DNA of 58,730 nt from a virus. Its lineage: Duplodnaviria > Caudoviricetes. The notes under the pieces are model-generated. The model had not been told where the DNA came from. It saw nothing but the letters and a program-made list of their open reading frames with translations, and searched no databases. Position 1 is the stretch's first letter; the number at the start of each line of letters is the position of its first letter. Shown here piece after piece: positions 24,290 to 40,736 of this stretch. The position numbers and the translations under genes are program-made. The stretch spans positions 1-58,730 of IMG/VR virus record IMGVR_UViG_3300008110_000203, one strand, 5' to 3'.

Positions 24290-26808
24290 ATCCCACCATG
24301 TTGGCTGAACCGGGACAGCAGATTGCGAACCAACGCCATGCCAGCCGGTGTGATTAGGTCAGGAGCCTGCTTCGGGTCCAGTGGCGAGGCGGTTTCGGTG
24401 ACACCCAGAAGATCTGCGTAGTCGTACCCGCCTCTGGCCGGGAGATTTCGGTAGCCCATTTGCGGGTCGTACACTTTCGGGATTTCTTGGTTGAAGTACT
24501 GAAACGCCGCAGACATCGCAGGGCTGCTGGTGGATGTTGTTGCGGCGAAGTTCTCGAACCCTCCGGCAAAGGCTTCCTCTCGGTCTCGAGTCCACGGATT
24601 GCCCGGCATAAACCGGCGGCGCAGGTAGTGGGACATCTCGTGCGGTGCTGTTGACGGATCCGGACCAAAAGCCATCAACGTTGTCCCGTCCGGACTGAAT
24701 TGAATAGCTCCTCGAGGTGTTTGGTCGGCTAGCGGCGATTGCGTGTAGAGGTTCGGGTCGGGTCCCTCTGGGTTCAATCCGGCCAACAACCTCGCTATTT
24801 TTTCGTTTGGTGTGTTGGCGGGCGCCATACCTATTCTGTTAAGCAACGACGGGTCGTGGACTGCGGCCTCAATAAGCCCCGGAAACCCATCGCCTTGGGC
24901 TGGGAGCATCTCCACTCTTAGCCTATAGTTTACTTTATTTGCGTCACTGAGCCTTCTGGCCTCAGCAAACGCAGCCGATCGTTCGCTCCCGACGGGGAGA
25001 GAGTTTGCGTGTTCGTACAGGTCTCCAATACGTTTTTGTGTGTCTGTAAATAGATAGTCCGGAGCGTGTTGCCCCGCCCACGACGTGTGGCCTACCGGAG
25101 GTTGTATAGAAAACAAGTGTATTTGGGGGTCGCCCCCTCCGTACTCGTTGGCGTACACCTTGGCGCCTGAAATAGCTCTTAACAATTCTTCGTCGTTTCT
25201 GGCTGCGTACCCGTACAGCCCATTTCCCAGAGGGCGTAGTCCTCCGGGCTCCCCGGATCCAAGAAAGCTTTTGTCAAAATCTCGCCAGTTACTACCCCCA
25301 TGAACAAACACCCAATTTTTATCATCCATCAGAGTGTTCTGTGGATTTAATGGAGACTGGTACAGCATCCGCGGGTCGGCATCTTCCGGACCCACCCCAG
25401 CCGCCGCCAAACGGTCTCGAACGCCTTCAGAAGACATCATCTCCGTGCGCGGGTTTTTCGCCAAAACAAAGTCGCCGAATTGCAGCACCTCGTCGGCGTC
25501 AACAACACGCGACCGGTGGTCGTCCGACAGGTAGAAGTAGGAGTGCCGCTCGGGGTTGTACCCAACCTGCCGCCATTGCGGATCCCGCATCTTCGCTTGA
25601 ATCTCGCTAAGCACTTGATCCGGGGACGTGAGAGCCCCCACCCGACCCGCAACCACGGCCCACGAGTTTTTACTGGCTTCTCCCGCCGCAACTGCTGCCG
25701 GGCCCCGAGGCCCGGCAGAAAACTGGTACTCTTCCAAAGGCGATTTTACGTTTGTTTTGTTTCCTCCGGCCAGCCCAAAACTTACTTTGCCTGTTTCGTC
25801 CGGCAGGAGCTGAACAGCTCGGGCGTAGTTGAGCCCGTCTTTCCCGTGCAACGTGACGACAGGGTTATTCCGCGCGTACTCATTGATGTCCAGACGGGCC
25901 CCTACCGGCATACCAACAACCGGGGAAAGGTCATCCAAACCCTTTGCCGCAATCCGCTCCGGGCTGTTGGAAAAACCCGGAGGCATGCGGTCGCGCAAGG
26001 TTGTCAGGTGGTCTTCTGACCGAGGAACTGGCGCCCTCCCCGACTCACCCATCAAGCGGTTGTACTGGTCTTGGTCGATTCTGCCGGCAAACAGGTCGTT
26101 CGCCTCGTCCTGCATCAATCGTGGTCGAGGTATTGCCGGCTGTTGCAGGGGCGATTCCATCAACTGATCAGCAACCGCGGAAGTCGCTGCGATCCCGGCA
26201 ACAGCGCCCTCCAGCCGCTTAGCGGTTACGCCGCCGTAGACCAAGTTTGGGTCTTTCTTCTGCGCAATCGTGGCGGCATCGAGCAGTGTCATTGTGTGCT
26301 CGCCAGACTCGCCGTACGCCTCTACCATCTCTCGACCAAGGCGTTGCCGTTCCGGGTTTCGTTGCAAGGCCTCCAAAGCTGCGTTGTGGGTTGTGGCCTT
26401 TTTCCCCGCACGAAATAGCTTGCCGAGTTTTAGCGCAGAAACCACGTTCAGCGGGTCCGTCAGGATCTCCACCCCAAACCCAGCCAGGTCGCGAAGGCCT
26501 TCCATCGGATCGTCGAGCCAGCCAGCCATGCCGGTCTCTTTGTTCGGGGCTGTAACACCCCAGTGATCCAGAACATCTCTCCCCGTCACTCGGTTGTCGG
26601 CGCTGAACGGAGACGCAAATTGGTCGAGTGGGTTTCTCCCGACGAGCAGGTCTCTGACGGAGCTGCCGGGCAGGTCGAAGGCGTTCCCCACGGCGTCCAG
26701 CACCGGGCTGTAATACTCGCTGCCGGGGGCTCCGGCCACAGCACCTGCAGTAAGTCCGTACGTCGCGTACGGTGCGTACCTACCAGCTCGTTGGAGAAAC
26801 GTTCGCAT
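24286..26808 (-). CDS. multidomain polyvalent-type virion protein with an ART-like domain and an HExxH metallopeptidase-like domain
   Basis: HGGSNWRDFDKSFLGSGE...LGNGLY...AKVYA segment; STAPHEMSH...EEAFA segment; N-terminal domain shared with the 1838-aa protein. Confidence 0.6.
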   Translation of the reverse strand: MRTFLQRAGRYAPYATYGLTAGAVAGAPGSEYYSPVLDAVGNAFDLPGSSVRDLLVGRNPLDQFASPFSADNRVTGRDVLDHWGVTAPNKETGMAGWLDDPMEGLRDLAGFGVEILTDPLNVVSALKLGKLFRAGKKATTHNAALEALQRNPERQRLGREMVEAYGESGEHTMTLLDAATIAQKKDPNLVYGGVTAKRLEGAVAGIAATSAVADQLMESPLQQPAIPRPRLMQDEANDLFAGRIDQDQYNRLMGESGRAPVPRSEDHLTTLRDRMPPGFSNSPERIAAKGLDDLSPVVGMPVGARLDINEYARNNPVVTLHGKDGLNYARAVQLLPDETGKVSFGLAGGNKTNVKSPLEEYQFSAGPRGPAAVAAGEASKNSWAVVAGRVGALTSPDQVLSEIQAKMRDPQWRQVGYNPERHSYFYLSDDHRSRVVDADEVLQFGDFVLAKNPRTEMMSSEGVRDRLAAAGVGPEDADPRMLYQSPLNPQNTLMDDKNWVFVHGGSNWRDFDKSFLGSGEPGGLRPLGNGLYGYAARNDEELLRAISGAKVYANEYGGGDPQIHLFSIQPPVGHTSWAGQHAPDYLFTDTQKRIGDLYEHANSLPVGSERSAAFAEARRLSDANKVNYRLRVEMLPAQGDGFPGLIEAAVHDPSLLNRIGMAPANTPNEKIARLLAGLNPEGPDPNLYTQSPLADQTPRGAIQFSPDGTTLMAFGPDPSTAPHEMSHYLRRRFMPGNPWTRDREEAFAGGFENFAATTSTSSPAMSAAFQYFNQEIPKVYDPQMGYRNLPARGGYDYADLLGVTETASPLDPKQAPDLITPAGMALVRNLLSRFSQHGGI

Positions 26809-27445
26809 CAATCACCACCACCTTCGGCGGGGACAAAACCTGCATCGCGGATGAAACCACCAATTGAGGGTCTATCTGGGATATTCTGCTCAAAATGTCA
26901 ACCCGAAACAAGGGGTCGTGCTCGAGGCGGGCGAAAGCGGCCTGGGAGGCCACCGCCATGAGCTGCCCCTCGTCCATATCTCCGAGAGGGTCCGAGTCTC
27001 CCACCAGCTTATCGCGGGAATTTATGAGTGTGCTCAGCAGCTCGTACAGCCCTTTGACGAGCTTGAGGTCAACGGACTGGAACATTGCCTGCTCTGGCGT
27101 CAGGCCCTCCCCTCGTGCCGTCTTGAAGTCCTCGACGAGGCGGTCGGCGAGCTTTTCCGGACCCCCGAGGTTTTCTATCACGCGGTCGGCGAGGTCGAGG
27201 CCGTACGGGCGGCCTTTTTTCCGCACCGCTGCCAGGGCTTTTCGCCACTCAGAGGGATGCTCTCCGCTTAGCAAAGACGCGGCGGTGCGCTCCGCCAACT
27301 CAGTGCATGACATGCAAGATGCTCCATCAGCCCGTGGAGTGTATGGCATACCACAAATGGGGCAGATCACTCGCCCCGGGAATTGCTCACTAAACACAAT
27401 CGGCGGGCTGTGGCCCGCCGATTGCGTTGCGTCTCCGCCTGACAC
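26780..27445 (-). CDS. Zn-finger plus helical protein, terminase small subunit candidate
   Basis: CPICG...CMSC followed by a helical domain; upstream of terL. Confidence 0.45.
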   Translation of the reverse strand: MSGGDATQSAGHSPPIVFSEQFPGRVICPICGMPYTPRADGASCMSCTELAERTAASLLSGEHPSEWRKALAAVRKKGRPYGLDLADRVIENLGGPEKLADRLVEDFKTARGEGLTPEQAMFQSVDLKLVKGLYELLSTLINSRDKLVGDSDPLGDMDEGQLMAVASQAAFARLEHDPLFRVDILSRISQIDPQLVVSSAMQVLSPPKVVVIDANVSPTSW

Positions 27446-27449
27446 GGAG

Positions 27450-27560
27450 TCACCGAGTGCTGACCGGAGTCAGCGGGTTCTGGATAGGGTTGCCTGGCTG
27501 GACGTTTGTCACGCTGGAACTGCCGTGAATCCCGGTCGGCGGAACTGGTTTGTCAACCAC
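27450..27560 (-). CDS. 36-aa micro-protein (not in the ORF track)
   Basis: AGGAG SD then GTG: MVDKPVPPTGIHGSSSVTNVQPGNPIQNPLTPVSTR; fills the intergenic gap. Confidence 0.5.
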   Translation of the reverse strand: MVDKPVPPTGIHGSSSVTNVQPGNPIQNPLTPVSTR

Positions 27561-27607
27561 AACTAAACTCCTGTAAGAGGGAACCTTGCGACATCAGCCG
27601 GCACAAA

Positions 27608-28138
27608 TCAGCAGTCGAGTGGGCTGAACGGGGTGCGGACGTACGCCCGACCGCGTGCTGCCGCCGCGGTAGTACTCGAGGAATACCCGCAATGACCCAC
27701 GGGGTTGGTTCCCTCGGTACCTGCCACAAACGTGCCGTTGGCGGAAGTTTGCAGGACGGCCCCGGGGGTCAGACCCCCTGTGCCGGCCAACACCCGAGTA
27801 GGTCCTTCGACAATCATCCAGAAAATACTGCCGACCGGGACGGGGGCTGACAACCACGGATCGACAACTCCGTGCAGGGCCTGATTTGCCCCGCACAGAC
27901 CCCCCACAAGCGTGACGGTGGTGTCCGCGGCTTTCATCCGCACACCAACGCCCGGGGCCAATGTCGCTCCGCTGTCGTTCTTCACCAAGACTGCACAGAC
28001 TTTCTGCTGAGACTGCAGTACCGGAAATTCCGGGTTTGTGTAGTCGAGGTCTTGAAACTCGGCTCCCTGACCCAGAGCCTGCGGGTCATCATAGATATCA
28101 ACCGCACCCAACTTCGCCAGAATCGTGTGGCCTGCCAT
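27608..28138 (-). CDS. capsid decoration/cement protein
   Basis: 176-aa Gly-rich beta protein directly after the capsid gene (VKNDSGATL; FWMIVEGP). Confidence 0.6.
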   Translation of the reverse strand: MAGHTILAKLGAVDIYDDPQALGQGAEFQDLDYTNPEFPVLQSQQKVCAVLVKNDSGATLAPGVGVRMKAADTTVTLVGGLCGANQALHGVVDPWLSAPVPVGSIFWMIVEGPTRVLAGTGGLTPGAVLQTSANGTFVAGTEGTNPVGHCGYSSSTTAAAARGRAYVRTPFSPLDC

Positions 28139-28200
28139 ACATCACCTTCAGAAAAAGTAAACCGATTGTTTTGGGAACGTAAAATCAGGCGATCCGACGA

Positions 28201-29346
28201 TCAGGTCTTGCTCACAAACCGGCACAGGTACTTCGGCAAGAACTTGAAATTGCCGTAGCTCGAGGCGTAGTACAGGTACCCAGTGTGGCTTGTGCTCCAC
28301 TCGGGGCCGTGTGGTCCGTAAATATCGTTGTGCAGGAAGAAGCCCTCCAAGAACTGCGGGAGGTACATGTAGGCGTTGTTCTGCGGAATGGCGTAGTCCA
28401 TTGAGTAGACGGCACCGTCAACCATCAGCGTTTCGCCCGGATAGCCCAGGTCGCCGTCCTTCCACGGCATGATCTGCCGGTTGTTGGCGCGGAAGCTGTC
28501 CTTGAACTGGGGGAACAGATTGCTGCTCATAGCGACCTGCGGAGGAGCGCCAATCATCGACTGGCCGCCACGGTGCAGCATGGCTGTCATCGCGTAGGAG
28601 GCAGCAGACACAATGTTTTTCGCAAAACCTGTACCGCCATTGCCCCAGATGTTGGGGCCATAATTGATGATCAGCGGCGAAGTACCATCATACTCAGGGC
28701 TACCCTGACCAAACGGGAAGTCGTTCCCGAGAGAGGCATTCGGCGGGGTGTCGCCGGCGGTCACCGACCACGTTCCGCCCAGAGACCCGAGGGCTGTATT
28801 CTGACCGCAGTAGGACCCTGTCGGACGAGCGACCTTATCGGCGTTGGTGAGCGTATTGTTGTCGTACGCGGTAGCCGTACCAATACCAGCGAAATCGTAG
28901 GCAAACGCTGAATCGTTGCCGTTACACCAAAACGCTCGCTGAATTCTCTCGCTCATTGCCTGAGCGAGTTCCTCCGATTTGCGGGTGTAGCGGTCGGTGA
29001 TTGCGATGTCGCCAGCGCCATCTCGCATCAAGTACTCCTGCTCGCCCATGAAATCGGACGTGCGGTAGCCCTTGATCCCAATAAAATACTGGATGTCGGT
29101 GTCGGTGTTGACAAACTGCAACGGCTGGTTTTCGACCGCAGGGAATACGGACGGCTGCTTGACGCGAGCGTTCCAGACCTGAGTATGCCCGCGTGCTTTG
29201 AACGAGAGCCGACCGAATCGCCGCAGGTTGTACATCGTCAAGAAGTTTCGGACCGTGAGATCCGACACTGCTTTCCAGTACTTGGGGGCCAAGTCGCGTA
29301 CTACGTTGACATGCCCCGCTACGTTTTGCGGTACAATAGCAACCAT
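28201..29346 (-). CDS. major capsid protein
   Basis: 381 aa; strongly biased codon usage; follows the scaffold-like gene; size and position fit an HK97-fold capsid. Confidence 0.75.
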   Translation of the reverse strand: MVAIVPQNVAGHVNVVRDLAPKYWKAVSDLTVRNFLTMYNLRRFGRLSFKARGHTQVWNARVKQPSVFPAVENQPLQFVNTDTDIQYFIGIKGYRTSDFMGEQEYLMRDGAGDIAITDRYTRKSEELAQAMSERIQRAFWCNGNDSAFAYDFAGIGTATAYDNNTLTNADKVARPTGSYCGQNTALGSLGGTWSVTAGDTPPNASLGNDFPFGQGSPEYDGTSPLIINYGPNIWGNGGTGFAKNIVSAASYAMTAMLHRGGQSMIGAPPQVAMSSNLFPQFKDSFRANNRQIMPWKDGDLGYPGETLMVDGAVYSMDYAIPQNNAYMYLPQFLEGFFLHNDIYGPHGPEWSTSHTGYLYYASSYGNFKFLPKYLCRFVSKT

Positions 29347-29358
29347 TTTCGAATCCTA

Positions 29359-30390
29359 TTAAGAGGGTACCTGTTGAGAAGCGGCGGCCATCAACGTGAA
29401 ATCCGGAAATCCGGCGTTGTTTACTGGAACCGAACCCGCCGGAGGGCCGTTGTTGACGATGCTTCCGGGAGCAGAAAACGCAGGGTTTGCCGACTGTGTG
29501 GTCACAGTCTGCAACCAAGGCTTTTGCGCAGCCGCCGGTGGCTGTTGCGCCGGCGGGGGTGTTTGAGTGTTCAGCAGCGGCTTAGCCGCCAAGTGGGCGA
29601 TATTGTGTGCAGCAGTGCGGTCTCGAACGCCGGCGGCGGTTGCTGCCTCCCAAGCAGCGTGATAGGCCTGTCCGGCAGCCGTCAAAGCTCCGTCTGGCCC
29701 CACCAAAGCGGGTCGGTTCGTCTGCACAAAAGTCGTCGCTGGGTCTGGTACGGCCTGTCGCGCGACGGCGGCGAGCTGTTCCCGAAGCGTTGCAATCTCT
29801 TGCTGTAACGGGGCTGTGACTTCAGCGACAAACCCTTGACCGTAGTTACGGATAAACCGCTCCGGGTCTGCGAGTTCTGCCTGGATCGCCCGCTGACGCG
29901 CGAGGTTGTCATTCAGGGCTGATGCGACCTGGGTAGCGAGCGGGTTTGAGGCAACATACGCACCGTCGCGGAACGCCAGCATGCCCGCTTGCTGGAACGA
30001 AAGAGCCGCAGCAGACAGATCCGCGGGTGAGGGGGCTGGCGTCTCTGCCGGGGCTGTCTGCTGCGGAGGCGCTGGTTCTGGCGTCTGAGAGGCTTCCGCC
30101 AAATACTGGAGTACCTGCAGGTCGTCCGTGAACCCATGCCCTTGGGGAAGAGTCCCGTTGGCCTCCAGCCGGCGGATCATCGCGATGTTGCTCGACGCTG
30201 CTGCAGGGGCACTTGGCGCTGCCGGCGCAGGGGTCGGGGCTGTCGGTGCTGTCGGTGCGGGGGTTGGCGCTGGCTGCGGTGGAGGGAAAGCTGCCCCCGA
30301 CGCAGGCTGGGGCTGCTGCGTCGGGGGGTTCACTCCCCCCACGGGAGCGGTCGCGGATAAATCGGCAAAATTTGGGAAAGGCATAGACAT
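29359..30390 (-). CDS. capsid scaffolding protein (putative)
   Basis: Pro/Ala/Gln-rich termini around a coiled-coil core, directly upstream of the capsid gene. Confidence 0.6.
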   Translation of the reverse strand: MSMPFPNFADLSATAPVGGVNPPTQQPQPASGAAFPPPQPAPTPAPTAPTAPTPAPAAPSAPAAASSNIAMIRRLEANGTLPQGHGFTDDLQVLQYLAEASQTPEPAPPQQTAPAETPAPSPADLSAAALSFQQAGMLAFRDGAYVASNPLATQVASALNDNLARQRAIQAELADPERFIRNYGQGFVAEVTAPLQQEIATLREQLAAVARQAVPDPATTFVQTNRPALVGPDGALTAAGQAYHAAWEAATAAGVRDRTAAHNIAHLAAKPLLNTQTPPPAQQPPAAAQKPWLQTVTTQSANPAFSAPGSIVNNGPPAGSVPVNNAGFPDFTLMAAASQQVPS

Positions 30391-30533
30391 AGTTTAAGGC
30401 TCCAGTGCAAAGTGGGGGGAGAAACGATTCTTCCGAATCGTGCCCACTATCAGACTGGACGGCAACGCTGCCTCTGAACTATTCTACCGACATTCCCGTT
30501 TTGCCCGTTTCCCTACACGATAACCTGACCCCC

Positions 30534-30779
30534 ATGAGCGAACAATTACTGACACCAAAAGAAGTCGTGACGCTGATCAAACAACAGTTTGGTGTTAGCG
30601 TAGACGTATCTACTGTTCGGAAGTGGTGTACCCGCGGTATTGGCGGGGCGAATTCAAAGTGTTGCCTGCCTCGCGTGCATGTCGGCGGGCGGGTATTTGT
30701 GAAGCTCAGTCGGCTGCAGAATTGGCTGCAGCGGAAACAACTCCGATCACTGTTGGATGGTTCCGAAACATCTCTGTGA
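30534..30779 (+). CDS. DUF1580-like/excisionase-type winged HTH protein
   Basis: MSEQLLTPKEVV...VSTVRKWCTRG...LPRVHVGGRVFV, a MerR/Xis-like pattern; convergent with and overlapping the recombinase. Confidence 0.7.
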   Translation: MSEQLLTPKEVVTLIKQQFGVSVDVSTVRKWCTRGIGGANSKCCLPRVHVGGRVFVKLSRLQNWLQRKQLRSLLDGSETSL

Positions 30780-32211
30780 GGCTCAGAGATCGCTGCTCTC
30801 TCGGAAGCTGCTGGTGGATGTCCATGAATTCTTTGAACCTTGCAGCGTTCCTCATGAAACGGTTCGGGTTCACGGGAGAAGCTACGTGCGTGTGACTATC
30901 AACTACGGCAGCAACGCGTTTGCATAACGCGGTACCCTTCCGCCGCAAGGCTCGAGCGTACTCCGCCGCATTTGTGTACGGCATGGCGATCAGAGGGGGT
31001 AGGCCTTTCTCATGCAGCGCCTGATTGCAAACGCACGATACGCACGCCGGCACGTTCCGGTATTGTTTGTACGTCAGGTACACTTTGAGCCACAAATCAG
31101 ACATTTCCTGCGGCGTGAACACATCTTGAAACACGTAATGCTTCTGGCGGAGTGGGATCCTGTTCGACAACGCTCTCGGTAACCGTTGTTGCAACAGGTT
31201 CTCATTTGTCGCAAGAGCAATTGCTGCCGCATGCTTCGTGGCTCGGCTAGTTTCCTCGGACTCGAGCTGGGCGAATGCGGAGAGCATGCCCATCAGCAGC
31301 CTGCCAAACAGGTCGTCAGTGCGGATCCCGCTTTCCGCGATCGCGAGAATGGCACCTTTGGCGTGAATGGCGTCGATTTGGTTGGCCGCGTCTTTCAGAG
31401 ACCGAAACAGTCTGTCCGGCCTCAGAGCAACGACGACATCACCGGGTTGCAGGATCTGCAGCATTTGCCCACCAGCGGGCCGGTTCTGCAGAGGGGTTTT
31501 CCACGCGCTGACCCCTTCGTCCACAAACTCCAGGGCGTCTGGGTACTTCTGCCGCAAAATCTGTAGTTGAGTGCTTGCGGACTGATCGTCCGTGGACACT
31601 CTGGCATACAAAAACGTCCGCCCTTTGGCGACCGCTGCCGGGGTCGCAGCCATTATCCGAAGAGTTTCAACCGCAGAAAGTTGGGACGGAGGTACTGGCG
31701 GCCTGGTCGCTGGTCGGCGATCTTGTGGGGTCGCGGTTGCATCCTTCTTTCGCGCCTTTGCCTCCCGTATTCGAGCAGAAATAAGCTCGCTTTTGAGCTG
31801 AGCAACTGCCGCCATGCAGTACACCAGACACCGACCGTTGGCCGAGTTGAAACTCAGCGAAGGGTAGTCCACAAAAGTGACGTGGACTCCGGCCTCGACC
31901 CACCGTTCGAGGATGCTGCACGCATCAGAGACACGGCGAAATAGCCGTGTCAGGCTCGTGACGACTACGGTGTCACCCGGTCGAACCGAGTTTGCCAGCA
32001 ACAAAGCGCCGGGTCTTGTCTCAAAAGACTTTTTGTACGCGCTCCTGCCCCCGTCGATTATCACGCCGGGGCTGTCGCAATTCGAGGCCGAAGCCAAAAC
32101 AAGGTTTGTCGATGTGCAGTAGTCCCGACAGGACTTCACCTGACCCTCGAGACTCTGCCCGTTCAGCATTTGCTCAGGCGTTGAGACGCGTGCGTAAATG
32201 TACGCCACCAT
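30706..32211 (-). CDS. serine recombinase with two tandem resolvase catalytic domains
   Basis: YIYARVST...RPG...GDTVVV..LTRLFR and FLYARVST...RPAG...GDVVVA..PDRLFRS...FAQLESE; AGGAG SD. Confidence 0.9.
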   Translation of the reverse strand: MVAYIYARVSTPEQMLNGQSLEGQVKSCRDYCTSTNLVLASASNCDSPGVIIDGGRSAYKKSFETRPGALLLANSVRPGDTVVVTSLTRLFRRVSDACSILERWVEAGVHVTFVDYPSLSFNSANGRCLVYCMAAVAQLKSELISARIREAKARKKDATATPQDRRPATRPPVPPSQLSAVETLRIMAATPAAVAKGRTFLYARVSTDDQSASTQLQILRQKYPDALEFVDEGVSAWKTPLQNRPAGGQMLQILQPGDVVVALRPDRLFRSLKDAANQIDAIHAKGAILAIAESGIRTDDLFGRLLMGMLSAFAQLESEETSRATKHAAAIALATNENLLQQRLPRALSNRIPLRQKHYVFQDVFTPQEMSDLWLKVYLTYKQYRNVPACVSCVCNQALHEKGLPPLIAMPYTNAAEYARALRRKGTALCKRVAAVVDSHTHVASPVNPNRFMRNAARFKEFMDIHQQLPREQRSLSLTEMFRNHPTVIGVVSAAANSAAD

Positions 32212-32224
32212 GTCGTGCTCCTAA

Positions 32225-32263
32225 AAAGATAGCCGGAGAGGGGTGTGCGGACCCCTCTCCGGC
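32225..32263 (-). terminator. intrinsic terminator-like hairpin directly upstream of the recombinase RBS
   Basis: Perfect 13-bp stem GCCGGAGAGGGGT/ACCCCTCTCCGGC followed by TATCTTTTT on the minus strand. Confidence 0.7.
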
Positions 32264-32349
32264 CACCTGCCCCTCCGGTTAATGGATGGACAGCAAAGGA
32301 ACAGGACCAACCGCTGCCAAAAGCACCGCACATGCTTTTGACAACAAAA

Positions 32350-32438
32350 CACGCTGGGCAGGGCTCGAACCTGCACAAGTGGCCTCAACGCACCCACTAC
32401 CTTGCGGCCACTTACTCTACCAATTGAGATACCAGCAT
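32350..32438 (-). ncRNA. tRNA-like RNA with an extended, non-canonical anticodon arm
   Basis: Acceptor ATGCTGG/CCAGCGT; D arm TCTC-AATTGGTA-GAGT; T arm GCAGG-TTCGAGC-CCTGC; the middle arm is AAGTGGCC-21nt-GGCCACTT; no encoded CCA. Confidence 0.75.
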
Positions 32439-32449
32439 GCACCTGCGAC

Positions 32450-33301
32450 TCAGTTCGCCGGTTTCGACCGGAGCATCCTACTACGGGACAAACGAGACGT
32501 CAACCATTTTTGTGTAATTAGCACCGCAGCCACCACAAAAACCGCAGCCAACACCCCGGGTTCGGGCACTGAGTTGGTCTGGGGGACTTGCCCGGCATAC
32601 AAGTCTCCGTTGGTCAGGACGATCCTGTCCAGTCGATAGTTTGGGTGGGCGCCTGAACCTTCGATCGGCATCGGATCAACCTCGTCGATTGAGATATACC
32701 CAACCCCTTGATAGACGCGGTCGAACAGGCCTGTCGGTGCTCTGCCGACCCAGCTACGCCACAAAAAGGGGATGTAGATGGGGTTGTTTGCCGGCAGGTC
32801 TGTCAGACTGTCATAGACTCGCAGGAAATCGCTGTAGGTGTCCCCGGCGCCTACAGGAGTCCCGTACGGCAGCAACACCGCCTGATCCCAACCCCGAGTG
32901 TATGTGGTCTGCACCTGAATCTGCTGCTCCCCGTCTTCGGTGCCATACCTATCCGAGAAACTTCCGGTGCTTATGAACGCCATCCCACCACCCTCCGCAA
33001 TCTGAGCGAAAGAGATCCACCCCAGCGGTCGCCCAAAACCGGAAAGATTCTGACCAATCTCTGCCGTGTACCAGCCCGTGTCTGGGTTTATGGTAACCCC
33101 GTACTCCTGAACCTCCACGATGAGGTCTCCTTTTACGGCGTCGCAACCTCCAAGAGCCAGCAATATCACCAGCAATATGACAAGGAGGTTTCCGATCTCT
33201 GGGTGGATTGACAACCACCCCGGATCCCCGACCCAAATTTTACAGCACAGATGCCCATACAGCCTTTTCAAGTACTTGTCGCCGCCCCGTTGCTCGCTCA
33301 T
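32450..33301 (-). CDS. PEP-CTERM sorting-domain surface protein
   Basis: C-terminal VPEPGVLAAVFVVAAVLITQKW..RLSRSR (PEP, TM helix, basic tail); N-terminal hydrophobic signal-like segment. Confidence 0.75.
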   Translation of the reverse strand: MSEQRGGDKYLKRLYGHLCCKIWVGDPGWLSIHPEIGNLLVILLVILLALGGCDAVKGDLIVEVQEYGVTINPDTGWYTAEIGQNLSGFGRPLGWISFAQIAEGGGMAFISTGSFSDRYGTEDGEQQIQVQTTYTRGWDQAVLLPYGTPVGAGDTYSDFLRVYDSLTDLPANNPIYIPFLWRSWVGRAPTGLFDRVYQGVGYISIDEVDPMPIEGSGAHPNYRLDRIVLTNGDLYAGQVPQTNSVPEPGVLAAVFVVAAVLITQKWLTSRLSRSRMLRSKPAN

Positions 33302-33516
33302 GGATCCCAGCCCTCCTCGTATTCCGAATACGTCATCGCACTACTACCGTAATCTGCGTACTCCTGCTCCCACCCCGGATCTGCCGGGACTTCCTCCGAG
33401 GCTATCAATACCTCCCAAAGACGCCCGAGAATTCGGAACGCCCACACACCCAAAGGCACTCCCGCCAGTACAAGAACAAACCACAGAAACCCTGAAACCC
33501 CAAGCCTGTCTTGCAT
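33298..33516 (-). CDS. small membrane protein
   Basis: 72 aa; N-terminal TM helix and acidic tail; overlaps both neighbours at the start/stop. Confidence 0.6.
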   Translation of the reverse strand: MQDRLGVSGFLWFVLVLAGVPLGVWAFRILGRLWEVLIASEEVPADPGWEQEYADYGSSAMTYSEYEEGWDP

Positions 33517-34160
33517 TATTGACTCCTGTGAAAAACGCCATCCCAGACAACAGACGTGATTCGCGTCCGCGGTGAACCGTCAGGCTCTAAGCGGCTCAAA
33601 CCAAAGTCCCGAACAAATTGACACATCGCCCGGGCAAGCGGTGCCGGGGTCAGCTCTCTGACAGCTTTTGAGCAACAGAGCACCTGCTTCGGTTTTTGCG
33701 GACGCTTTACCCTGGCCCCCAGCCGACCCAATTCGTACGCCGCCTGCATCGCCGTCATTGCCGGCAACCCGACCAGATACAGCGTCGTCAGCTTGCGGGC
33801 TTCGTGACCGTAGTCATACTGGTCGATTGTGATACGCAACCCGCCAAACTGGTCCCTCCGACCCCCGTCGGGGATCCCCGCAAATTCCCACAGGGTACTG
33901 TCTTTCGGGTGCTCGAGAATCCCGCCGCATCTGCGTACCTCCTGCAGGCAGAGCAAAGCCAAGGATTTTTGTGATATGTTTTTGTTTGCCAACGGGGCGG
34001 TACGACCCCACTGGGCGCACGGTGGGTGTGCGATGACTGGGTAATTATCCCGACATTTGCGAAAATCCTTACGTTTGTCCCACGGCACTACGCCGGGTAT
34101 GTGGTAATAGGCGCTATCCATTCGAACGCAGGCCGCGGTTATCGTCTGTATCCCTGTCAA
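33516..34160 (-). CDS. DNA cytosine-C5 methyltransferase-like protein
   Basis: VIAHPPC (motif IV-like), ILEHP (motif VI-like), Q..YGH..RK.T.L (motif VIII-like); TTG start at 34160 after GGAG. Confidence 0.6.
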   Translation of the reverse strand: MTGIQTITAACVRMDSAYYHIPGVVPWDKRKDFRKCRDNYPVIAHPPCAQWGRTAPLANKNISQKSLALLCLQEVRRCGGILEHPKDSTLWEFAGIPDGGRRDQFGGLRITIDQYDYGHEARKLTTLYLVGLPAMTAMQAAYELGRLGARVKRPQKPKQVLCCSKAVRELTPAPLARAMCQFVRDFGLSRLEPDGSPRTRITSVVWDGVFHRSQ

Positions 34161-34308
34161 TCGTCTTCTCCATCTTTTCGACGTGGTGGGGTAGGTGGTT
34201 GTGGGACCACGGGATGTACAGCACATCCCTGGGGATGAGCCACTGAAAAGGTAAGTACTTCTCCGCATGGCTATTTGCTTGCCACCATTTCGATTGCTTT
34301 TCTGTCAT
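34114..34308 (-). CDS. hypothetical protein
   Basis: 64-aa ORF with ATGA coupling to the upstream gene. Confidence 0.4.
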   Translation of the reverse strand: MTEKQSKWWQANSHAEKYLPFQWLIPRDVLYIPWSHNHLPHHVEKMEKTIDRDTDDNRGLRSNG

Positions 34309-34637
34309 CCGAACTCCGATATGATGATTCGTCTGAGCCGGTACACTTCCTGCAATACGACAGACATATCCTGGTTATCGAAGGTGGTTTCGTTGGCCTC
34401 ACATCGTTGCAGGATCCGATGCAGCTCCTCTGTCATGCCTGCATCCGGATCGAGCCGGATGTACTGCTGCTTTTCCCCTACAGCGTCCCCGACGCGGTGT
34501 GTCGGATATCGTCTCCCGTCGTCGATCTGTACAATCTGATCACCAGGCTGCAGTATCTCACCGACTTGCAGCCTTCGCCAGCCCTCGGGTATTGTGAACT
34601 CCGGCTGTGGTTCTGGCGTTTTGTCCGGCTCACTCAT
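34305..34637 (-). CDS. hypothetical protein
   Basis: 110 aa; PEGWRRLQVGEILQPGD motif. Confidence 0.65.
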   Translation of the reverse strand: MSEPDKTPEPQPEFTIPEGWRRLQVGEILQPGDQIVQIDDGRRYPTHRVGDAVGEKQQYIRLDPDAGMTEELHRILQRCEANETTFDNQDMSVVLQEVYRLRRIIISEFG

Positions 34638-34688
34638 TGCTCACCCCCTGCCCGTAGAGTCTCAAAAGACTGCTGCATGCCACATTCA

Positions 34689-34946
34689 TCACATGTTACG
34701 ATCAGGACGTTTTGCCGCATCTCTGTATCCCCTCGACCAGCGGAACCAATGTCGCGGTGTCATTATTTCAAGTCGCGGCCCTGAACCTTTGATTCCGCGA
34801 CCGACGTACATTGCCACCGATCCAACATGCAAACAGAACCAGCATCCGTATGATGCCGTGTAAGCCACGTTACCCTTAATCACAACCATCATTGTCGCTC
34901 CTATAAAACGTTTTAAAACGCCATCCTGTGCAAAGTAGGGTGTCAC
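34689..34946 (-). CDS. hypothetical protein
   Basis: 85 aa; GTGA coupling to the upstream ORF. Confidence 0.45.
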   Translation of the reverse strand: MTPYFAQDGVLKRFIGATMMVVIKGNVAYTASYGCWFCLHVGSVAMYVGRGIKGSGPRLEIMTPRHWFRWSRGYRDAAKRPDRNM

Positions 34947-35188
34947 TGCTGCCCCTCCTGCAGACGTTCCACGGCGAACTCAATCTCCAACTCCTGCCGC
35001 TTTACTTCGTCCATCAGATCCTTTAGTGTCAGGCCCATCGACTGCACCACTGCCAACCACGACGCTACTGTTCCGGTGGCTGGTCTGCTCAGTCGCATTA
35101 TCGTGGCCAGATGTGGCAGCAACTCCGCCGCCAACTGTTTGCGTTCGTCACTCACTGCTGCTGCTGTGGTGATGGTCCCAACATGCAC
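34943..35188 (-). CDS. hypothetical coiled-coil protein (start uncertain)
   Basis: Non-overlapping part of ORF 34943..35272. Confidence 0.5.
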   Translation of the reverse strand: MHVGTITTAAAVSDERKQLAAELLPHLATIMRLSRPATGTVASWLAVVQSMGLTLKDLMDEVKRQELEIEFAVERLQEGQQ

Positions 35189-35190
35189 TC

Positions 35191-37452
35191 TTAGTCCCTC
35201 CCCTGTTGTTCTTCGAACTGAACTCGGAAACGATACGCAATGGGGTCTGTATCCGGAATCTCTTCGATCCAACCCAAACTCTTGAACAATGTGATCTCGT
35301 ACTCAGCAGCCCCCCGCCCAAGGTTGTTGAACCGTGAGTAGTGCCTGAAGGTGAATGTGGGGTACCCACGTGTCTGCAGCTTCCGCGATCTCTGGGACGC
35401 AGTGGTTTGCAGCATGTCCGTGACAGCCTGCGTTTGAGCCCCGGCAGCCCCGCACAGCTTAGCGTACGCCTGATCCACCTTGCTGTCGAGCATGCGTTGT
35501 TTGTGTGACCACAGCCACTCCATCAGATCTATGGCACGGTGTACGTAGGCGGTCGGAATTGTCGGGTTGACAAACCCCCGGGTTGGGTTTACGGCAGAAG
35601 TCCACACCTGTTCTTCGATCGCGAGGTCGAGCACCCACAAAACTGCCGACATTCGCAAGGCCACTTCCGCATGCCTGAGCACCTCGCTCCGCCAAGGATG
35701 CTCGTCCGGCCACTGAGCCAGGTACGCCGCGCTGCGTTTGTGTTTGGCGTACCCCTGCCAGACGGCGTTGGCTTCGGAGGACAGGGTGAGGATCGACGGG
35801 TCGATGTCGGTCCCTGACGCCGCGGCGAGGGCCATAGCATCGACGCTCTGGATCGCCTGCTTGTGGGTGTTCAGGCGTCGGGCCATTTGATCCCAGTGCG
35901 ACCACCACGCCGTCATGGCTCTCTGGCTTTCCTGAGCCGGCTCCTCCGGAATACGGCCCAGAGGGAAGAGCTGCATTCGCTGGATCAAACCGTCGATCAG
36001 GTCAATCCCGGGGATTTGGTTCAGGTTCACGCCCTGAATAGCCCCCACGATAGAGCAGAACGGCGACCGGACGACAGTGTTCCCGGTCTTGCGGAACTGG
36101 ACGATTGAGTCCCCGGACCATGCTCGCAGCCACATGCCGGTGTTTGACGAGCTGCCGGCAAGGGCCTGAGAGTATCGACCGAACATCCCGAGGAAGTCCT
36201 TGCCTTCAGTGAGCACAACCAGCAGTCCTCGGGGGAATTTCGACATGCCGTGGGCGAAGGCCTCCGGCGTAGCGTCGGTCAGAACCCGTTCAGATCCGCG
36301 CAGCGGAGCTGTGACCTGATTGATGGTCAGCGATTTCCCCGCACCCGACGGTCCAACCCCGAAAATGTACGACTGCACTCCGGTCGCTGGGGCGTCGGGG
36401 GTTGTGCGGACCTGCACCGACGACCCCAGCAGACCGGAGGCTACTGCTAATGTGCTCAACAGGAACAAATTCCTGGGGTATTGAGCTGCTCTTGCGTGCA
36501 AACTGACCGCCTGAATACGGCTATCAAAGACATTTTGCGGAATTTCGGGGAAAATTGCAGATTCTTCCTGCAATTCCGCCGCCTGGCGTGCCTTTATTAC
36601 GTCAGACGTGGCGTCCGCGAAGTCGATTTCGGTAAATTCCGCGGCGGGAGTGGGCGTAACCGCCAGTTTTGCCACCAGATTCTGCAATTCCAGCTCGCCA
36701 CGCCCCTTTTCATGCAGCGTCCCGAGCTTGTCCGCCAGTGGCCGCATCATATCCACGACCAAAGTCTTCGGAAGTCGCAGATCCGCGGCCAGAATCTTGC
36801 TCAACCGCAGCAGGTACTCGTGCCTGTTTCCCACTTCTGGCAACAAACCGTCGTCTTCAGCACAGACAGTGGTTGTTCTCTTCACTGCCGTGCGAGTTTT
36901 GCTGTAGTTGGTCAGAAACCAGTGCTTCAGGGGCCCCGGAATCAGGGCAATTCTGGTCTCCCACGGCGCACAACCCGGCAACCAACTGTAGTACTGTTGG
37001 GTCAGAGGGTGTATGGAGGGCGGGCAAGCTGAGTAAACGGCGGAATCCTGTTGCCCCAGTCGGCATTCCAAGTAATCGGCTTTGACAACGGACACACCGA
37101 AAGCGGCCAGATCCGCGTCCCACTGGAACCAGTAGTGATTCCCCCGGGCTGCTCGGTACGCAACGGTACGTATCTGAGCCTGCTGAATCATTTGTTCCAG
37201 CAGAGCATAAGCCTCCGGGCTGTCCGGCTCGCAGTCCATCACCCCACTGGACGGACCCATTAGTGCGGCTAGACCCCAGTTCTGCCCTTTCGGGAACATC
37301 GCCGGCAACGCCTGCACGTTGTTCGTAGCCTCAACGTCCCATTTGCAGCCGTGTTTTGGTAGCTTTGTACCCGGTTGCAAGGCAAACACGCGGACACCCA
37401 AATCCGCAAGGCACTTCGCCGTGCCCATCAAACACTCATAGTGATTCACCAT
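35191..37452 (-). CDS. bifunctional DNA primase-polymerase fused to a DUF3987-like P-loop helicase
   Basis: N-terminal VFALQPGTKLP...NWGLA...GVMDCEPD...GNHYWF...PPSIHP; GNRH (PriCT-like); GPSGAGKS Walker A and DATPEA. Confidence 0.85.
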   Translation of the reverse strand: MVNHYECLMGTAKCLADLGVRVFALQPGTKLPKHGCKWDVEATNNVQALPAMFPKGQNWGLAALMGPSSGVMDCEPDSPEAYALLEQMIQQAQIRTVAYRAARGNHYWFQWDADLAAFGVSVVKADYLECRLGQQDSAVYSACPPSIHPLTQQYYSWLPGCAPWETRIALIPGPLKHWFLTNYSKTRTAVKRTTTVCAEDDGLLPEVGNRHEYLLRLSKILAADLRLPKTLVVDMMRPLADKLGTLHEKGRGELELQNLVAKLAVTPTPAAEFTEIDFADATSDVIKARQAAELQEESAIFPEIPQNVFDSRIQAVSLHARAAQYPRNLFLLSTLAVASGLLGSSVQVRTTPDAPATGVQSYIFGVGPSGAGKSLTINQVTAPLRGSERVLTDATPEAFAHGMSKFPRGLLVVLTEGKDFLGMFGRYSQALAGSSSNTGMWLRAWSGDSIVQFRKTGNTVVRSPFCSIVGAIQGVNLNQIPGIDLIDGLIQRMQLFPLGRIPEEPAQESQRAMTAWWSHWDQMARRLNTHKQAIQSVDAMALAAASGTDIDPSILTLSSEANAVWQGYAKHKRSAAYLAQWPDEHPWRSEVLRHAEVALRMSAVLWVLDLAIEEQVWTSAVNPTRGFVNPTIPTAYVHRAIDLMEWLWSHKQRMLDSKVDQAYAKLCGAAGAQTQAVTDMLQTTASQRSRKLQTRGYPTFTFRHYSRFNNLGRGAAEYEITLFKSLGWIEEIPDTDPIAYRFRVQFEEQQGRD

Positions 37453-37812
37453 TTCGCTCTCCGCACAAGAGTGATGCCAGTGTGGCGGGGATTTGGGAGA
37501 TTGTCAACCGTGATTCTCCGCAATTTGTAGAAAGGCTTCCGGTCGAGTGAACGCGAAGCGTTCACGTCGAGGAAAAACTTCGATGGAATTTGAAAATAAA
37601 ACTTGGGGTGACTTGACGGGGTGGGGTTGTGTGTGACTAAAATCGGGTAAATACTGGTATTTGCCGGTGATTACGGGGAGCAACCGAGCTTGGGTCTCCC
37701 TTCGCTCGGCTCTCGCTGGCGCTTCGCCGATCGAAGACCGGTAAGACTTGTGCCCGGCTGTTACGGGATCCACATACGGTCACTACGGTATTACTTTAAG
37801 GGGGCTGTGACA

Positions 37813-38007
37813 ATGGTAGACACCTTCGCTCGGCTGAGGGCATGCACCACTTGCGACGAAAACGGTAATGTGGTTATCCGGCACGGCGATAAGTCGGTCG
37901 TCCTGATCCCGGCAAAGTCCGACAAAGGTCGGTCAACGCACGAAATGCTGAATGACACGATCACAGGGTTGGCTGATCTGCTGGATGAGGTTCTTACCCA
38001 ATCCTGA
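37813..38007 (+). CDS. small hypothetical protein
   Basis: MVDTFARL... start after AAGGGG. Confidence 0.45.
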   Translation: MVDTFARLRACTTCDENGNVVIRHGDKSVVLIPAKSDKGRSTHEMLNDTITGLADLLDEVLTQS

Positions 38008-38143
38008 TCAAAGGTTTGAGCTGGCAAACACGCCAGCTTTTTTTACGCGCTGTGGCCGGTATACGGCCAAATTGGTCTGCAGTCTGTGTAATAGCCGGAA
38101 GTGCTGTGGTCGGCTGCTATTGCCTTGACCGCCCTGATTGCTG

Positions 38144-38319
38144 GTGTTTACCGGTATTGCCCTGTGTTTACCGGTATTTCCTTGTGTTTACCGGTATTTC
38201 CCTGTGTTTACCGGTATTGCCCTGTGTTTACCGGTATTTCCTTGTGTTTACCGGTATTTCCCTGTGTTTACCGGTATTGCCCTGTGTTTACCGGTATTGC
38301 CCTGTGTTTACCGGTATTT
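38144..38319. repeat. tandem 20-bp repeat GTGTTTACCGGTATTKCCYT, 8 full copies plus 1 partial
   Basis: Directly visible; palindromic core TACCGGTA; 60-bp higher-order period. Confidence 0.97.
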
Positions 38320-38437
38320 TGGAAAATTAAAAAATTCCGGGAGAGTAACCAAAATAAACCCCTCCTGCCCGACCGGTCCAGCCAGCCCCCCTCTTTAAAG
38401 CCGATCTAACTTCCCTGGCAAGCTTTTCTAAGGAATC

Positions 38438-38477
38438 CCGTGTTTACCTTCGCGGTCTACGTGATAGGTAAACACGG
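38438..38477. repeat. 12-bp inverted repeat CCGTGTTTACCT/AGGTAAACACGG reusing the GTGTTTAC motif
   Basis: Directly visible; further GTGTTTAC copies at 38492 and 38534. Confidence 0.85.
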
Positions 38478-38546
38478 CTACGCCTAGTCTCGTGTTTACT
38501 TTCTGAAGTCTCCCCTGCACTCACCCCGCCGCAGTGTTTACCGCGC

Positions 38547-38579
38547 AAAAAAAAACACCACCAGGAATTCCCGGTGGTG
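38547..38579 (-). terminator. intrinsic terminator
   Basis: Minus strand CACCACCGGG-AATT-CCTGGTGGTG followed by 9 T, downstream of ORF 38609..39292. Confidence 0.85.
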
Positions 38580-38608
38580 CTGTCGTTGTGTGGAGTTGTG
38601 GCTAGGTT

Positions 38609-39292
38609 CTAGGTTTTTGCTTTACCTTTCTTTGTGGTGGTTGCTGCAGGTCCGTAGTGCGTTGTAACCACCTGTTCTGCAAGCTTCCGCCGTGCGTCGT
38701 CGTCGTCGGCATTTATTTTGCATACCCACAAAATGGAATCCGCCAGCAGTACACTGAGGGTGCGGGCGTCGGTCTGCGTTGCGGGTTGTTTAGCCTGGCC
38801 AGGTTCGTCTTTAGGTTGCAGCCAAAAGCTAGCCCCACGACTTCGCCACAACAGGACCGTTTGCCATGCGTCGTTCTGTGTGATCAATTCATCTTCTGTC
38901 TGGGGTTTCGTTTCTTTCCTGCTGCTACTGCTGCGCCCGCCGATGATTCTGCTGACGTGTTCCGAGCGCGGGAAATGAATTGTCAGCGCGCGGGAGTAGT
39001 GCGTCGTTGATCCGCTAGTTGTTGTGGTTTCTCCGCACTCTGCAGCGAGGCAGATTGCCGGATTGTCGGTCGGGTTGCGCTTTGTTCCGGGCTCGGTGGG
39101 TGTCCGGGCAGTGGGGTGTACGTTATCGGGCAAGGGGGCGCGGGTCTTTGTCTTTGCGTGGGTTGCTGCGGTCTGGGTGGAGGCGACTTCACGCGCGCCG
39201 GTCTCAACCGCCAGCAGCCGATTGTTCACACCTTCGAGTGCACCTGACAGTTCCGTCATTTTGCTTAAGATCAAGTTCAAGGCGTCGTTCAT
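38609..39292 (-). CDS. hypothetical protein
   Basis: 227 aa; N-terminal coiled coil; followed by a terminator. Confidence 0.6.
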   Translation of the reverse strand: MNDALNLILSKMTELSGALEGVNNRLLAVETGAREVASTQTAATHAKTKTRAPLPDNVHPTARTPTEPGTKRNPTDNPAICLAAECGETTTTSGSTTHYSRALTIHFPRSEHVSRIIGGRSSSSRKETKPQTEDELITQNDAWQTVLLWRSRGASFWLQPKDEPGQAKQPATQTDARTLSVLLADSILWVCKINADDDDARRKLAEQVVTTHYGPAATTTKKGKAKT

Positions 39293-39296
39293 TGTC

Positions 39297-39815
39297 TTAA
39301 CCCTTTATGGATTTGAGATTGGAAAGATAGTCCGCATTTCTGCGGGCGATATGCTGCCGGTGTCCGGCCGTCTCTGTTGGTTCCGGCTTTTTGCCGTTGC
39401 CTAGTTCTGTCAGGTCTTTGTTCGTGTTTTCTTTGGGTGTCGTCTTCCTCCTAGCTAGTTGGTGAAGGGTGGCGTAAAGCCGTTCAATGCTGCATAAGCT
39501 TTTCCGGGTCTTAAAACACCTAAGGAAAGTTTGCGCAACTAGTGCTGTTTGCTGGTAGTCGTCTCGAGGGCAGATTTTCCGGGCAGTGGAGTAGACTTCC
39601 CCCCAGTCAATCCAGTCTGCTGGCAGAATCGGCAATTCGCCAGATAGTTCCAAGTCTAAAAGTCTGCCGATATGTTCCCCCTTTCGTAAGTCAGGTCGGT
39701 TGCAGTTCCCCGGTCTGCCACATTCATCGACCGTCGGCAGGGGAAGTCTACACTCTTTCCCCCTCCCACACAACGGAAAGCAAAACATTTCCCGAAACAG
39801 AGAAAAAACGTTCAC
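39297..39815 (-). CDS. hypothetical protein
   Basis: 172-aa ORF adjacent to the downstream ORF. Confidence 0.45.
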   Translation of the reverse strand: MNVFSLFREMFCFPLCGRGKECRLPLPTVDECGRPGNCNRPDLRKGEHIGRLLDLELSGELPILPADWIDWGEVYSTARKICPRDDYQQTALVAQTFLRCFKTRKSLCSIERLYATLHQLARRKTTPKENTNKDLTELGNGKKPEPTETAGHRQHIARRNADYLSNLKSIKG

Positions 39816-39899
39816 TATGGGTGTGCGTTTGTCACCCGTAGGGGTGACACCCGGCCTTACGGGTTACGTGCGCGGTCGGCGAGGGAAACCCGAGCGGCT

Positions 39900-39988
39900 G
39901 CCCAGAAAGCGGGACGCCTAAGAGGCCGGTCGGAAAGCGGATGCGTAACGCGTCGCCCAGAAAGCGGATGCGTAACGCAGAAAGCAGG
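39900..39988 (+). promoter_or_regulatory. array leader with four CRGAAAGCRG boxes
   Basis: Boxes at about 39903, 39931, 39958 and 39978; GAAAGCGGATGCGTAACGC occurs twice. Confidence 0.6.
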
Positions 39989-40640: not shown

Positions 40641-40648
40641 CTCGTGGC

Positions 40649-40706: not shown

Positions 40707-40736
40707 CGTTTTTGTGTTCCAGTAGGGAGCTTTGTT

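Follow-up and report, generated by a model that had tools for sequence, protein, structure and literature searches.

The window analysed here is the whole of IMG/VR virus record IMGVR_UViG_3300008110_000203 (Duplodnaviria; Caudoviricetes), a stretch of 58,730 nucleotides (nt) classed as linear and 89% complete by CheckV. On its minus strand lies a gene for a serine recombinase that carries two catalytic domains in one polypeptide. We regard it as an even bet that this protein represents an undescribed class of serine recombinase, in which a single chain combines two catalytic domains, both probably active, with a basic helical domain of no known fold, and which operates by the two-chain mechanism and in the role proposed below. 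The gene and its parts are laid out as follows.

30706–32211, minus strand: tandem-domain serine recombinase gene, from the list of open reading frames (ORFs) and its translation (501 amino acids plus stop, ATG start, no internal stop)
32218–32221, minus strand: Shine-Dalgarno motif GGAG, read from the sequence, 6 nt before the ATG at 32211
31756–32211, minus strand: catalytic domain 1 (residues 1–152), with Y6, R8, S10, D53, R89 and R92, from alignments, PDB matches and hidden Markov model (HMM) hits
31627–31755, minus strand: linker (residues 153–195), proline-rich, isoelectric point (pI) 11.4, predicted to be disordered except for a short helix at 180–187
31207–31626, minus strand: catalytic domain 2 (residues 196–335), with Y202, R204, S206, D231, D266, R267 and R270, from the resolvase alignment and Foldseek
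30709–31206, minus strand: C-terminal domain (residues 336–501), pI 9.85, mostly helical, about 165 amino acids, presumed to bind DNA

The Pfam Resolvase family (PF00239) matched two separate stretches of the 501-residue protein (E 2.5e-53, 180.5 bits, cut-off 23.3), and the motif YARVST occurs twice, at residues 6–11 and 202–207. Both the frame, with its exact coordinates, strand and length, and the pair of YARVST-bearing resolvase domains had been recognised in an earlier model-made annotation that used the letters alone (the sequence-only reading). In a PDB sequence search, residues 3–149 of domain 1 matched 3guv and residues 62–152 matched 2gm4, and residues 198–331 of domain 2 aligned to residues 2–132 of gamma-delta resolvase (E 2.4e-9). 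In Tn3 resolvase, the strongest mutational effects, with loss of recombination, fall on Y6, R8, S10, D36, R68 and R71 (PMC2794168, in the available part of the article). When residue equivalences were set by alignment to gamma-delta resolvase, all six of these critical residues were kept in both domains, as Y6/R8/S10/D53/R89/R92 in domain 1 and as Y202/R204/S206/D231/R267/R270 in domain 2.

These residues are also kept across the family. We counted them in an alignment of 150 representatives at 20–43% identity, some of which are cut at the N-terminus, so that totals refer to the sequences covering a position. In domain 1, R8 was found in 127/127 and S10 in 132/132 covering sequences, R89 and R92 in 150/150, R66 in 148/150 and D53 in 144/150. 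In domain 2, Y202, R204, S206, S235, R244, D258 and R267 were each invariant (150/150), with R270 in 145/150 and D231 in 143/150. Across three tiers of relatives, identity to the window protein fell in parallel for domain 1 (80, 51 and 34%) and domain 2 (79, 46 and 33%), and the same tiers gave 44, 13 and 10% for the linker and 59, 22 and 13% for the C-terminal domain. The two catalytic domains are thus under equally strong conservation. Because the key residues are conserved family-wide, both active sites look functional, and both catalytic domains are probably active.

Contigs of four public sequencing runs from four other studies (X3–X6) were aligned to positions 26000–42000 to check the integrity of the gene; being contigs, these data drop rare forms of the DNA. 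The whole gene is spanned by contigs of X3 (27306–35267; 2 differences, 0 gaps) and of X4 and X5 (30093–34613; 0 differences), and is covered in pieces only by those of X6. No insertion or deletion was found inside the gene in the contigs of the three independent freshwater runs X3, X4 and X5, and the sole difference within it, 30958 G>A in X3, is synonymous (Y418). No stop or frameshift therefore lies between the domains, one of the two findings that the sequence-only reading had named as counting against it. It is scarcely credible that the tandem form is an artefact of annotation or assembly, with the true product being either a 315-residue protein from Met187 or two proteins, even though the protein collection's own gene call for the window contig (P0006) is just such a protein of 315 amino acids, which starts at Met187 (31653), omits domain 1 and consists of domain 2 and the C-terminus. 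Against that call stand a single open frame with GGAG before its first ATG, while inspection of the sequence found no comparable ribosome site before Met187, the indel-free gene in three other runs, 27 full-length relatives of 476–554 amino acids, the presence of both domains in one chain in all 150 listed representatives, and a search among shorter proteins that found no close split form (best match 85 bits). The artefact explanation is already contradicted by the evidence from frame, contigs and relatives, and the gene is real and expressed-looking. The P0006 call also indicates that automatic annotation may conceal the tandem build in some records.

The relatives define a large family. A word-indexed protein search returned 27 near-full-length relatives at 96% down to 24% identity, all from metagenome sources (jgi, ena, lgn) and bearing only generic names. 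A profile built from them was scored against 1.84 billion representatives and drew 353 at E<=1e-30; separate HMMs for domain 1 and domain 2 found both in every one of the 150 listed. At least 150 clusters at 50% identity carry the tandem architecture. Among 200 proteins examined, 173 have two PF00239-type domains, a linker of 29–75 residues (median 43) and a C-terminal extension of about 130–200 residues of no known family (median tail after domain 2, 163 residues). The window's own C-terminal domain is common to only 18 of the 150 listed representatives (HMM). Pfam recognised PF00239 alone in 95 representatives, barring two stray single hits, and no NCBIfam model came near its cut-off for the window protein.

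Between them, the two catalytic domains of the window protein share 27.7% identity. A FastTree phylogeny took in 166 domains from the first position, 173 from the second and 26 single-domain recombinases, leaving out envelopes shorter than 116 residues and P0006. A single split (support 0.913) set all 173 second-position domains apart from every first-position and single-domain sequence, and the 26 single-domain recombinases, a small sample returned by the word-indexed search, formed one clade (support 0.993). These splits show that the tandem build arose once and that its halves have not been homogenised. The arrangement has been maintained across a large family.

Searches outside metagenomes returned no member. 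Among isolated phages, none of 152 matching records covers at least 80% of the protein, and among plasmids none of 1884 does; the isolate and plasmid rows at 56–67% cover are one domain matched twice. One narrow peptide pattern searched in cellular genome contigs gave 47 stretches, none of them a relative, and none of 401 genomes of one phylum, picked only through the tRNA T-arm match described below, matched at E<=1e-30; neither result says anything about absence from bacteria. In the full-text literature, a scope that leaves subscription journals and supplements outside, we came upon no account of a natural serine recombinase bearing two catalytic domains, and word searches within the available text of PMC13552941 and PMC10083194 gave none either. 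The protein therefore seems to belong to a large, conserved family that has apparently never been described or characterised. The second finding named by the sequence-only reading as counting against it was an architecture already common and characterised; common in metagenomes it is, with no sign of characterisation found.

In the whole-chain AlphaFold2 model (mean predicted local distance difference test, pLDDT, 76), two resolvase folds are visible, and each catalytic domain ends in a long helix (124–158 and 301–335). A Foldseek search of the PDB gave 41 matches at E<=0.001, all of them serine recombinases among the matches listed (E 1e-7); 2rsl, for example, was matched with a template modelling (TM) score of 0.86 on the target and a root-mean-square deviation of 2.2. 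The linker is proline-rich, as the sequence-only reading had seen, with 7 prolines among its 43 residues and pLDDT below 50 over 159–194. Modelled alone, the C-terminal domain (337–501) reached pLDDT 92.4 and a predicted TM score (pTM) of 0.81, with eight helices and two short strands. We found no fold match for it in the PDB by Foldseek (best E 1.5) or in BFVD (best E 1.9), no usable feature hit in the ESM Atlas (TM at most 0.36), and no alignment of Z 5 or more with VIA-align against 48,161 chains (best Z 3.9), a missing match being no proof of a new fold. Nor did its 165 residues give a Pfam or NCBIfam hit. This C-terminus had been described from the letters as neither an evident helix-turn-helix (HTH) nor the recombinase and zinc-ribbon region of large serine integrases, and the searches agreed: HTH_7, PF07508, PF13408, NCBIfam and fold matches were all lacking. 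From their basic charge we infer that the C-terminal domain and the linker bind DNA.

The serine recombinases known so far work as tetramers, in which four catalytic subunits, two to a crossover site, cleave the DNA and exchange its strands through a 5'-phosphoserine intermediate, and all described classes, to our knowledge, have one catalytic domain per chain and use four chains per reaction. If both domains of the window protein are live, the economical reading is that two chains make up the synapse: one chain would supply two subunits, and two chains would build the four-subunit assembly. Each crossover site would then meet one domain 1, one domain 2, one C-terminal domain and the basic linker, and since a site would be bound by a single C-terminal DNA-binding domain and two unlike catalytic domains, it should be asymmetric. 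Two topologies can be envisaged. The tethered domains might sit on one site, in which case the linker (29–75 residues across the family) would have to bridge the rotating interface and no more than one half-turn of exchange could occur; alternatively, they might be the two subunits that rotate together. A more far-reaching proposal, which we hold to be doubtful, is that the family forms a fourth architectural class whose working principle is without precedent, with a tethered pair of active but diverged domains at each site or a pre-formed rotating pair, an asymmetric site, a DNA-binding domain of new fold, exchange limited to a half-turn, and perhaps a function in genome maturation instead of lysogeny.

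Serine recombinases are textbook enzymes and important tools for genome engineering. A natural family with two conserved active domains per chain would put a mechanistic question to the subunit-rotation model, namely which subunits can be tethered and how a tether affects rotation. The family would further provide a new, presumably DNA-binding domain and perhaps enzymes able to recombine at asymmetric sites with half as many chains. Finally, the tandem recombinase marks a widespread but uncultured lineage of phages. Other features of the window are as follows.

28201–29346, minus strand: capsid-like protein, 381 amino acids, no Pfam or PHROGs hit, conserved beside the recombinase
29359–30390, minus strand: scaffold-like protein, 343 amino acids, proline- and alanine-rich N-terminus, no Pfam or PHROGs hit
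30534–30779, plus strand: small convergent HTH gene, 81 amino acids from its ATG, in an ORF open from a GTG at 30405
32349–32439, minus strand: tRNA-like element (Rfam RF00005, 37.6 bits, gathering threshold 29), its anticodon loop enlarged by an 18-nt insert, lying 138 nt upstream of where the recombinase gene starts
35191–37452: Prim-Pol/DUF3987 primase-helicase
38104–38343: iteron-like array in which a 20-nt unit, GTGTTTACCGGTATTKCCYT, is repeated head to tail about 11 times, in a 1.1-kb non-coding gap beside the primase-helicase gene
39975–47602: cassette repeats, ten copies of roughly 90 nt between small plus-strand early genes (families D2, D3 and D7)

The recombinase gene is part of a long array on the minus strand, where it has the replication genes to one side and the scaffold-like and capsid-like genes to the other. 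Other recognisable phage genes encode a family A DNA polymerase, an SNF2 helicase, a gp2.5-like single-stranded DNA-binding protein (SSB) and an SU10-type portal, and most of the remaining genes match nothing. The full-length tandem gene was also found in eight further IMG/VR records and one metagenome contig, and occurs once per virus record (9/9 related records). Seven related loci were compared (L002, L003, L082, L171, L172, L006 and L170), and in each of them a homologue of the scaffold-like or capsid-like gene lies within about 1.5 kb downstream on the same strand. The capsid-like protein (87, 64, 59, 30 and 26% identity to the window) and the recombinase (57, 38, 40, 36 and 34%) diverge alongside each other. 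From this position and joint divergence it follows that the recombinase gene belongs to the core of this uncultured phage lineage and is inherited vertically, and is not a module swapped in. Among the neighbours in distant loci, Pfam identified just a GNAT acetyltransferase, along with weak stray hits.

DNA nearly identical to the stretch 29500–39400 was present in 20 public runs, of which 19 contain half or more of the words sampled from it. These 19 runs, one of which may be the source sample, come from 16 studies dated 2017–2025 and are mostly freshwater or lake water, with seven labelled 'fungus metagenome'. The phage thus seems to be widespread.

The small convergent gene overlaps the 3' end of the recombinase gene, as the sequence-only reading had stated when it called the product an Xis-like HTH protein; the overlap measures 74 nt. 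The overlap and orientation held, and the family assignment came out weak (HTH_33, 25.1 bits against a cut-off of 25; HTH_17, 17.2 against 27), with a weak match to DUF1580 as well. A homologue lies in the same place and orientation in L002–L005 (4/5 loci searched; tblastn E 2e-18 to 5e-7) and in L082 (E 1.3e-6); none was found in L006, and L170–L172 fell outside this search. We consider its product a candidate directionality factor or regulator.

The tRNA-like element was missed by ARAGORN at its default settings and called as tRNA(tga) with introns allowed. Its insert lengthens the anticodon stem into a 37-nt imperfect palindrome (fold z-score -3.55), and by analogy with attP sites of the tRNA type the element is a candidate recombination site. 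It is absent from L002–L006 and, with introns allowed, from 12 related loci, a result that speaks against the tRNA-like region, one of the assay targets named in the sequence-only reading, as a conserved partner site; a tRNA call in L084 with a 353-nt 'intron' looks spurious. A search for a second copy of the palindrome gave three matches, two being the arms of the palindrome itself and the third no better than chance. The 23-nt T-arm/acceptor stretch occurs in only two genome records, in both cases within an ordinary tRNA-Asn(GTT) gene that differs elsewhere, so that the element identified neither a host nor an attB. Contigs of all four runs pass straight through it.

We rank integration and excision first among the possible roles, processing of replicated DNA second and inversion third. 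That the enzyme integrates and excises the phage genome, with the conserved convergent HTH protein acting as directionality factor or regulator, is a tentative proposal to which we give rather less than an even chance. A number of observations weigh against it or against the model of two active domains to which it belongs. No recombination site, host, provirus or integrated copy was found in the searches made. All 10 virus records, the window's included, are classed as 'linear' and none is flagged as provirus, and the contigs of the four runs are uninterrupted over 30093–34613, which implies that the dominant DNA form is not joined to a host there. These contigs showed no joint or loose end at the recombinase gene or the tRNA-like element; their loose ends at 30054, 34477–34948 and 39539–41348 fall at repeats or variable stretches. 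A PHROGs search of 20 ORFs of the early region and neighbourhood, most of which match nothing, recognised no repressor, excisionase, partition or other lysogeny gene. The phage's own DNA polymerase, primase-helicase and SSB are more typical of lytic phages, and a gene that leads the structural genes and co-diverges with the capsid is unlike the usual integrase gene, a kind often swapped. On the protein side, the whole-chain model gave no confident arrangement of the two domains (pTM 0.41), so that of the structure prediction proposed as a check by the sequence-only reading the two folds came out and their arrangement did not; domain 1 (1–158) and domain 2 (196–340), predicted as a complex without controls, scored 0.14 with a mark of 0.32, which tells neither way on their binding. 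DNA binding by the C-terminal domain was read from basic charge alone. Lastly, residues 87–92 of domain 1 read LTRLFR, a variant noticed at the outset, which puts Thr88 in place of D67 of gamma-delta resolvase. This position is variable in domain 1 (D in 99, H in 20, E in 10, S in 9, N in 5 and C in 5 of 150, with T among the rest), while domain 2 has D266 in 148/150. Being relaxed in domain 1 only, it suggests that the two sites may be non-equivalent.

The last of these points bears on whether one domain alone is catalytic, the other having taken on a structural or regulatory part in which it preserves the fold and the contacts within the dimer or tetramer. An inactive domain 1 would fit its non-Asp residue in 51/150 sequences, Thr in the window among them, beside an almost invariant Asp in domain 2, and would fit the fact that the presumed DNA-binding domain directly follows domain 2 only. 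We nevertheless find this quite improbable: R8, S10, R89 and R92 of domain 1 are present in every covering sequence, with D53 close behind, the domain is conserved as much as domain 2, and a purely structural domain would have no need of a nucleophile and arginines. D67 mutants of Tn3 resolvase, moreover, retain substantial cleavage and recombination (PMC2794168, in the same available part). The asymmetry at the D67 position thus hints at a difference between the sites, not at lost catalysis. For a chain with two active domains, the rivals to integration and excision concern its job. The same enzyme with the same chemistry could process replicated phage DNA before packaging, by resolving multimers or rearranging the products of replication at a site on the phage genome, and serve no lysogeny at all. 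We think this unlikely, although it would suit a core gene that stands directly before the scaffold-like and capsid-like genes in 7/7 loci and diverges with the capsid, the full replication set with the iteron-like array at 38104–38343, the lack of recognised lysogeny genes, and the absence of any provirus flag or host junction in the data. However, the neighbourhood of the gene yielded no pair of repeats that could act as res sites, the palindrome of the tRNA-like element has no second copy, and the conserved small HTH neighbour resembles the pairing of integrase and excisionase; we also know of no phage employing a serine recombinase for processing replicated DNA. A DNA invertase that flips a phage segment as a switch, for instance of host range or gene expression, is very improbable. 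Both halves of the protein do fall in phrog_125, 'DNA invertase' (PHROGs, E 9.4e-56), and some relatives are named 'DNA invertase Pin-like' by JGI, but label and name alike reflect the catalytic domain only. The 25 longest inverted repeats of the window are either 22–33 nt at 71–91% complementarity or repeated terminator hairpins, and none of them encloses a stretch close to the gene or to the tail genes. Contigs of the four runs contain no strand-changing joint over 26000–42000, and the protein has no HTH_7 domain.

Two further repeat regions belong to the window. The array at 38104–38343 looks like a replication origin of the iteron type. In the cassettes at 39975–47602, each copy consists of a conserved leader, a hairpin rich in GC (CCCGGCGAC...GTCGCCGGG) and carrying a T-run, and then a ribosome site and a start codon; the sequence-only reading had named cassette shuffling as one possible use of the recombinase, and nothing was found that links the enzyme to these repeats. 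Contigs of the public runs break at the cassettes, as expected because the repeats exceed the assembler's word. Contig depth in the four runs was 4–14 at 38816–39883, versus roughly 11–16 (X3) and 28–68 (X4–X6) over 30272–38815, and loose ends of more than 100 letters begin at 39770. The genes at 38609–39292 and 39297–39815, which have no family hits, seem to form a strain-variable region. Taken as a whole, the structural part of the sequence-only reading was right, and its overall interpretation is partly supported: its functional proposal, a one-chain pseudo-dimer that could recognise asymmetric sites in integration, resolution or cassette shuffling, is plausible and compatible with these data.

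In the course of the family searches we also came across adjacent paralogous recombinase genes of about 270–300 amino acids each, overlapping by 8 or 17 nt, in three loci (L088, 10043–11705; L096, 9980–11657; L111, 77–1622). Each gene of a pair encodes a resolvase domain and part of a region like that of large recombinases. These pairs, together with two ordinary resolvases in L106, were rejected as members of the family, as they scored similarly on both domain models (about 50–75 bits); the pairs may be a separate case of paired serine recombinases.

The window protein fails the defining features of the three described groups, namely small resolvases and invertases, large serine recombinases and IS607-type transposases, as well as those of the CcrA/CcrB pair. 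With the small serine recombinases (gamma-delta/Tn3 resolvase, Hin/Gin), each of its domains shares the catalytic fold and key residues, and the long terminal helices 124–158 and 301–335 can be likened to their E-helix. Small recombinases, however, consist of one catalytic domain of about 140 residues and a C-terminal HTH_7, measure about 185–200 residues and bind each site as a dimer, whereas the window protein has 501 residues and two catalytic domains, and HTH_7 (PF02796) gave no hit in it or in 95 relatives.

Large serine integrases (Bxb1, phiC31, TP901-1, SPbeta) are likewise phage-encoded proteins of about 500 residues with an N-terminal domain of the resolvase type. The place of the window gene, which stands between genes for replication and genes for structure and has a small accessory gene beside it, resembles the arrangement of integrase and directionality factor. 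Behind their single catalytic domain these enzymes carry the Recombinase domain (PF07508), a zinc ribbon (PF13408) and a coiled coil. None of these was detected in the window protein or in 95 relatives (E<=0.001 for PF07508 and PF13408), while ordinary large recombinases do show them in the same kind of search (precomputed Pfam). Structures of the Bxb1, phiC31 and SPbeta type matched the window protein through the catalytic domain only (Foldseek), and no integrase chain was among the fold matches of the C-terminal model, which is still compatible with a distant relation.

IS607-family TnpA resembles the window protein in joining a resolvase-type catalytic domain to an unusual domain order. Its DNA-binding domain is of the MerR/HTH_17 type (PMC6188088, in the available part of the text), and HTH_17 is the type weakly matched by the window's small neighbour gene. 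TnpA, however, has one catalytic domain with the HTH fused N-terminally, whereas the window chain begins with a catalytic domain, and the window protein scored 31.1 bits on the IS607 model NF033518 against a cut-off of 110.

For a hetero-pair, the closest precedent in nature is CcrA/CcrB of SCCmec, a pair of distinct serine recombinases acting jointly, so that two diverged catalytic subunits take part in one reaction. They differ from the window protein in being encoded by separate genes, each of which yields a complete large serine recombinase that brings its own DNA-binding region; on the CcrA and CcrB models of NCBIfam the window protein scored 37.6 and 17.8 bits against cut-offs of 900 and 700. 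For the passage from two chains to one, the single-chain LAGLIDADG homing endonucleases offer an analogy only, with an unrelated fold and chemistry and as nucleases, not recombinases: there, duplication or fusion turned a homodimer into a one-chain pseudo-dimer whose halves were free to diverge and which reads asymmetric sites.

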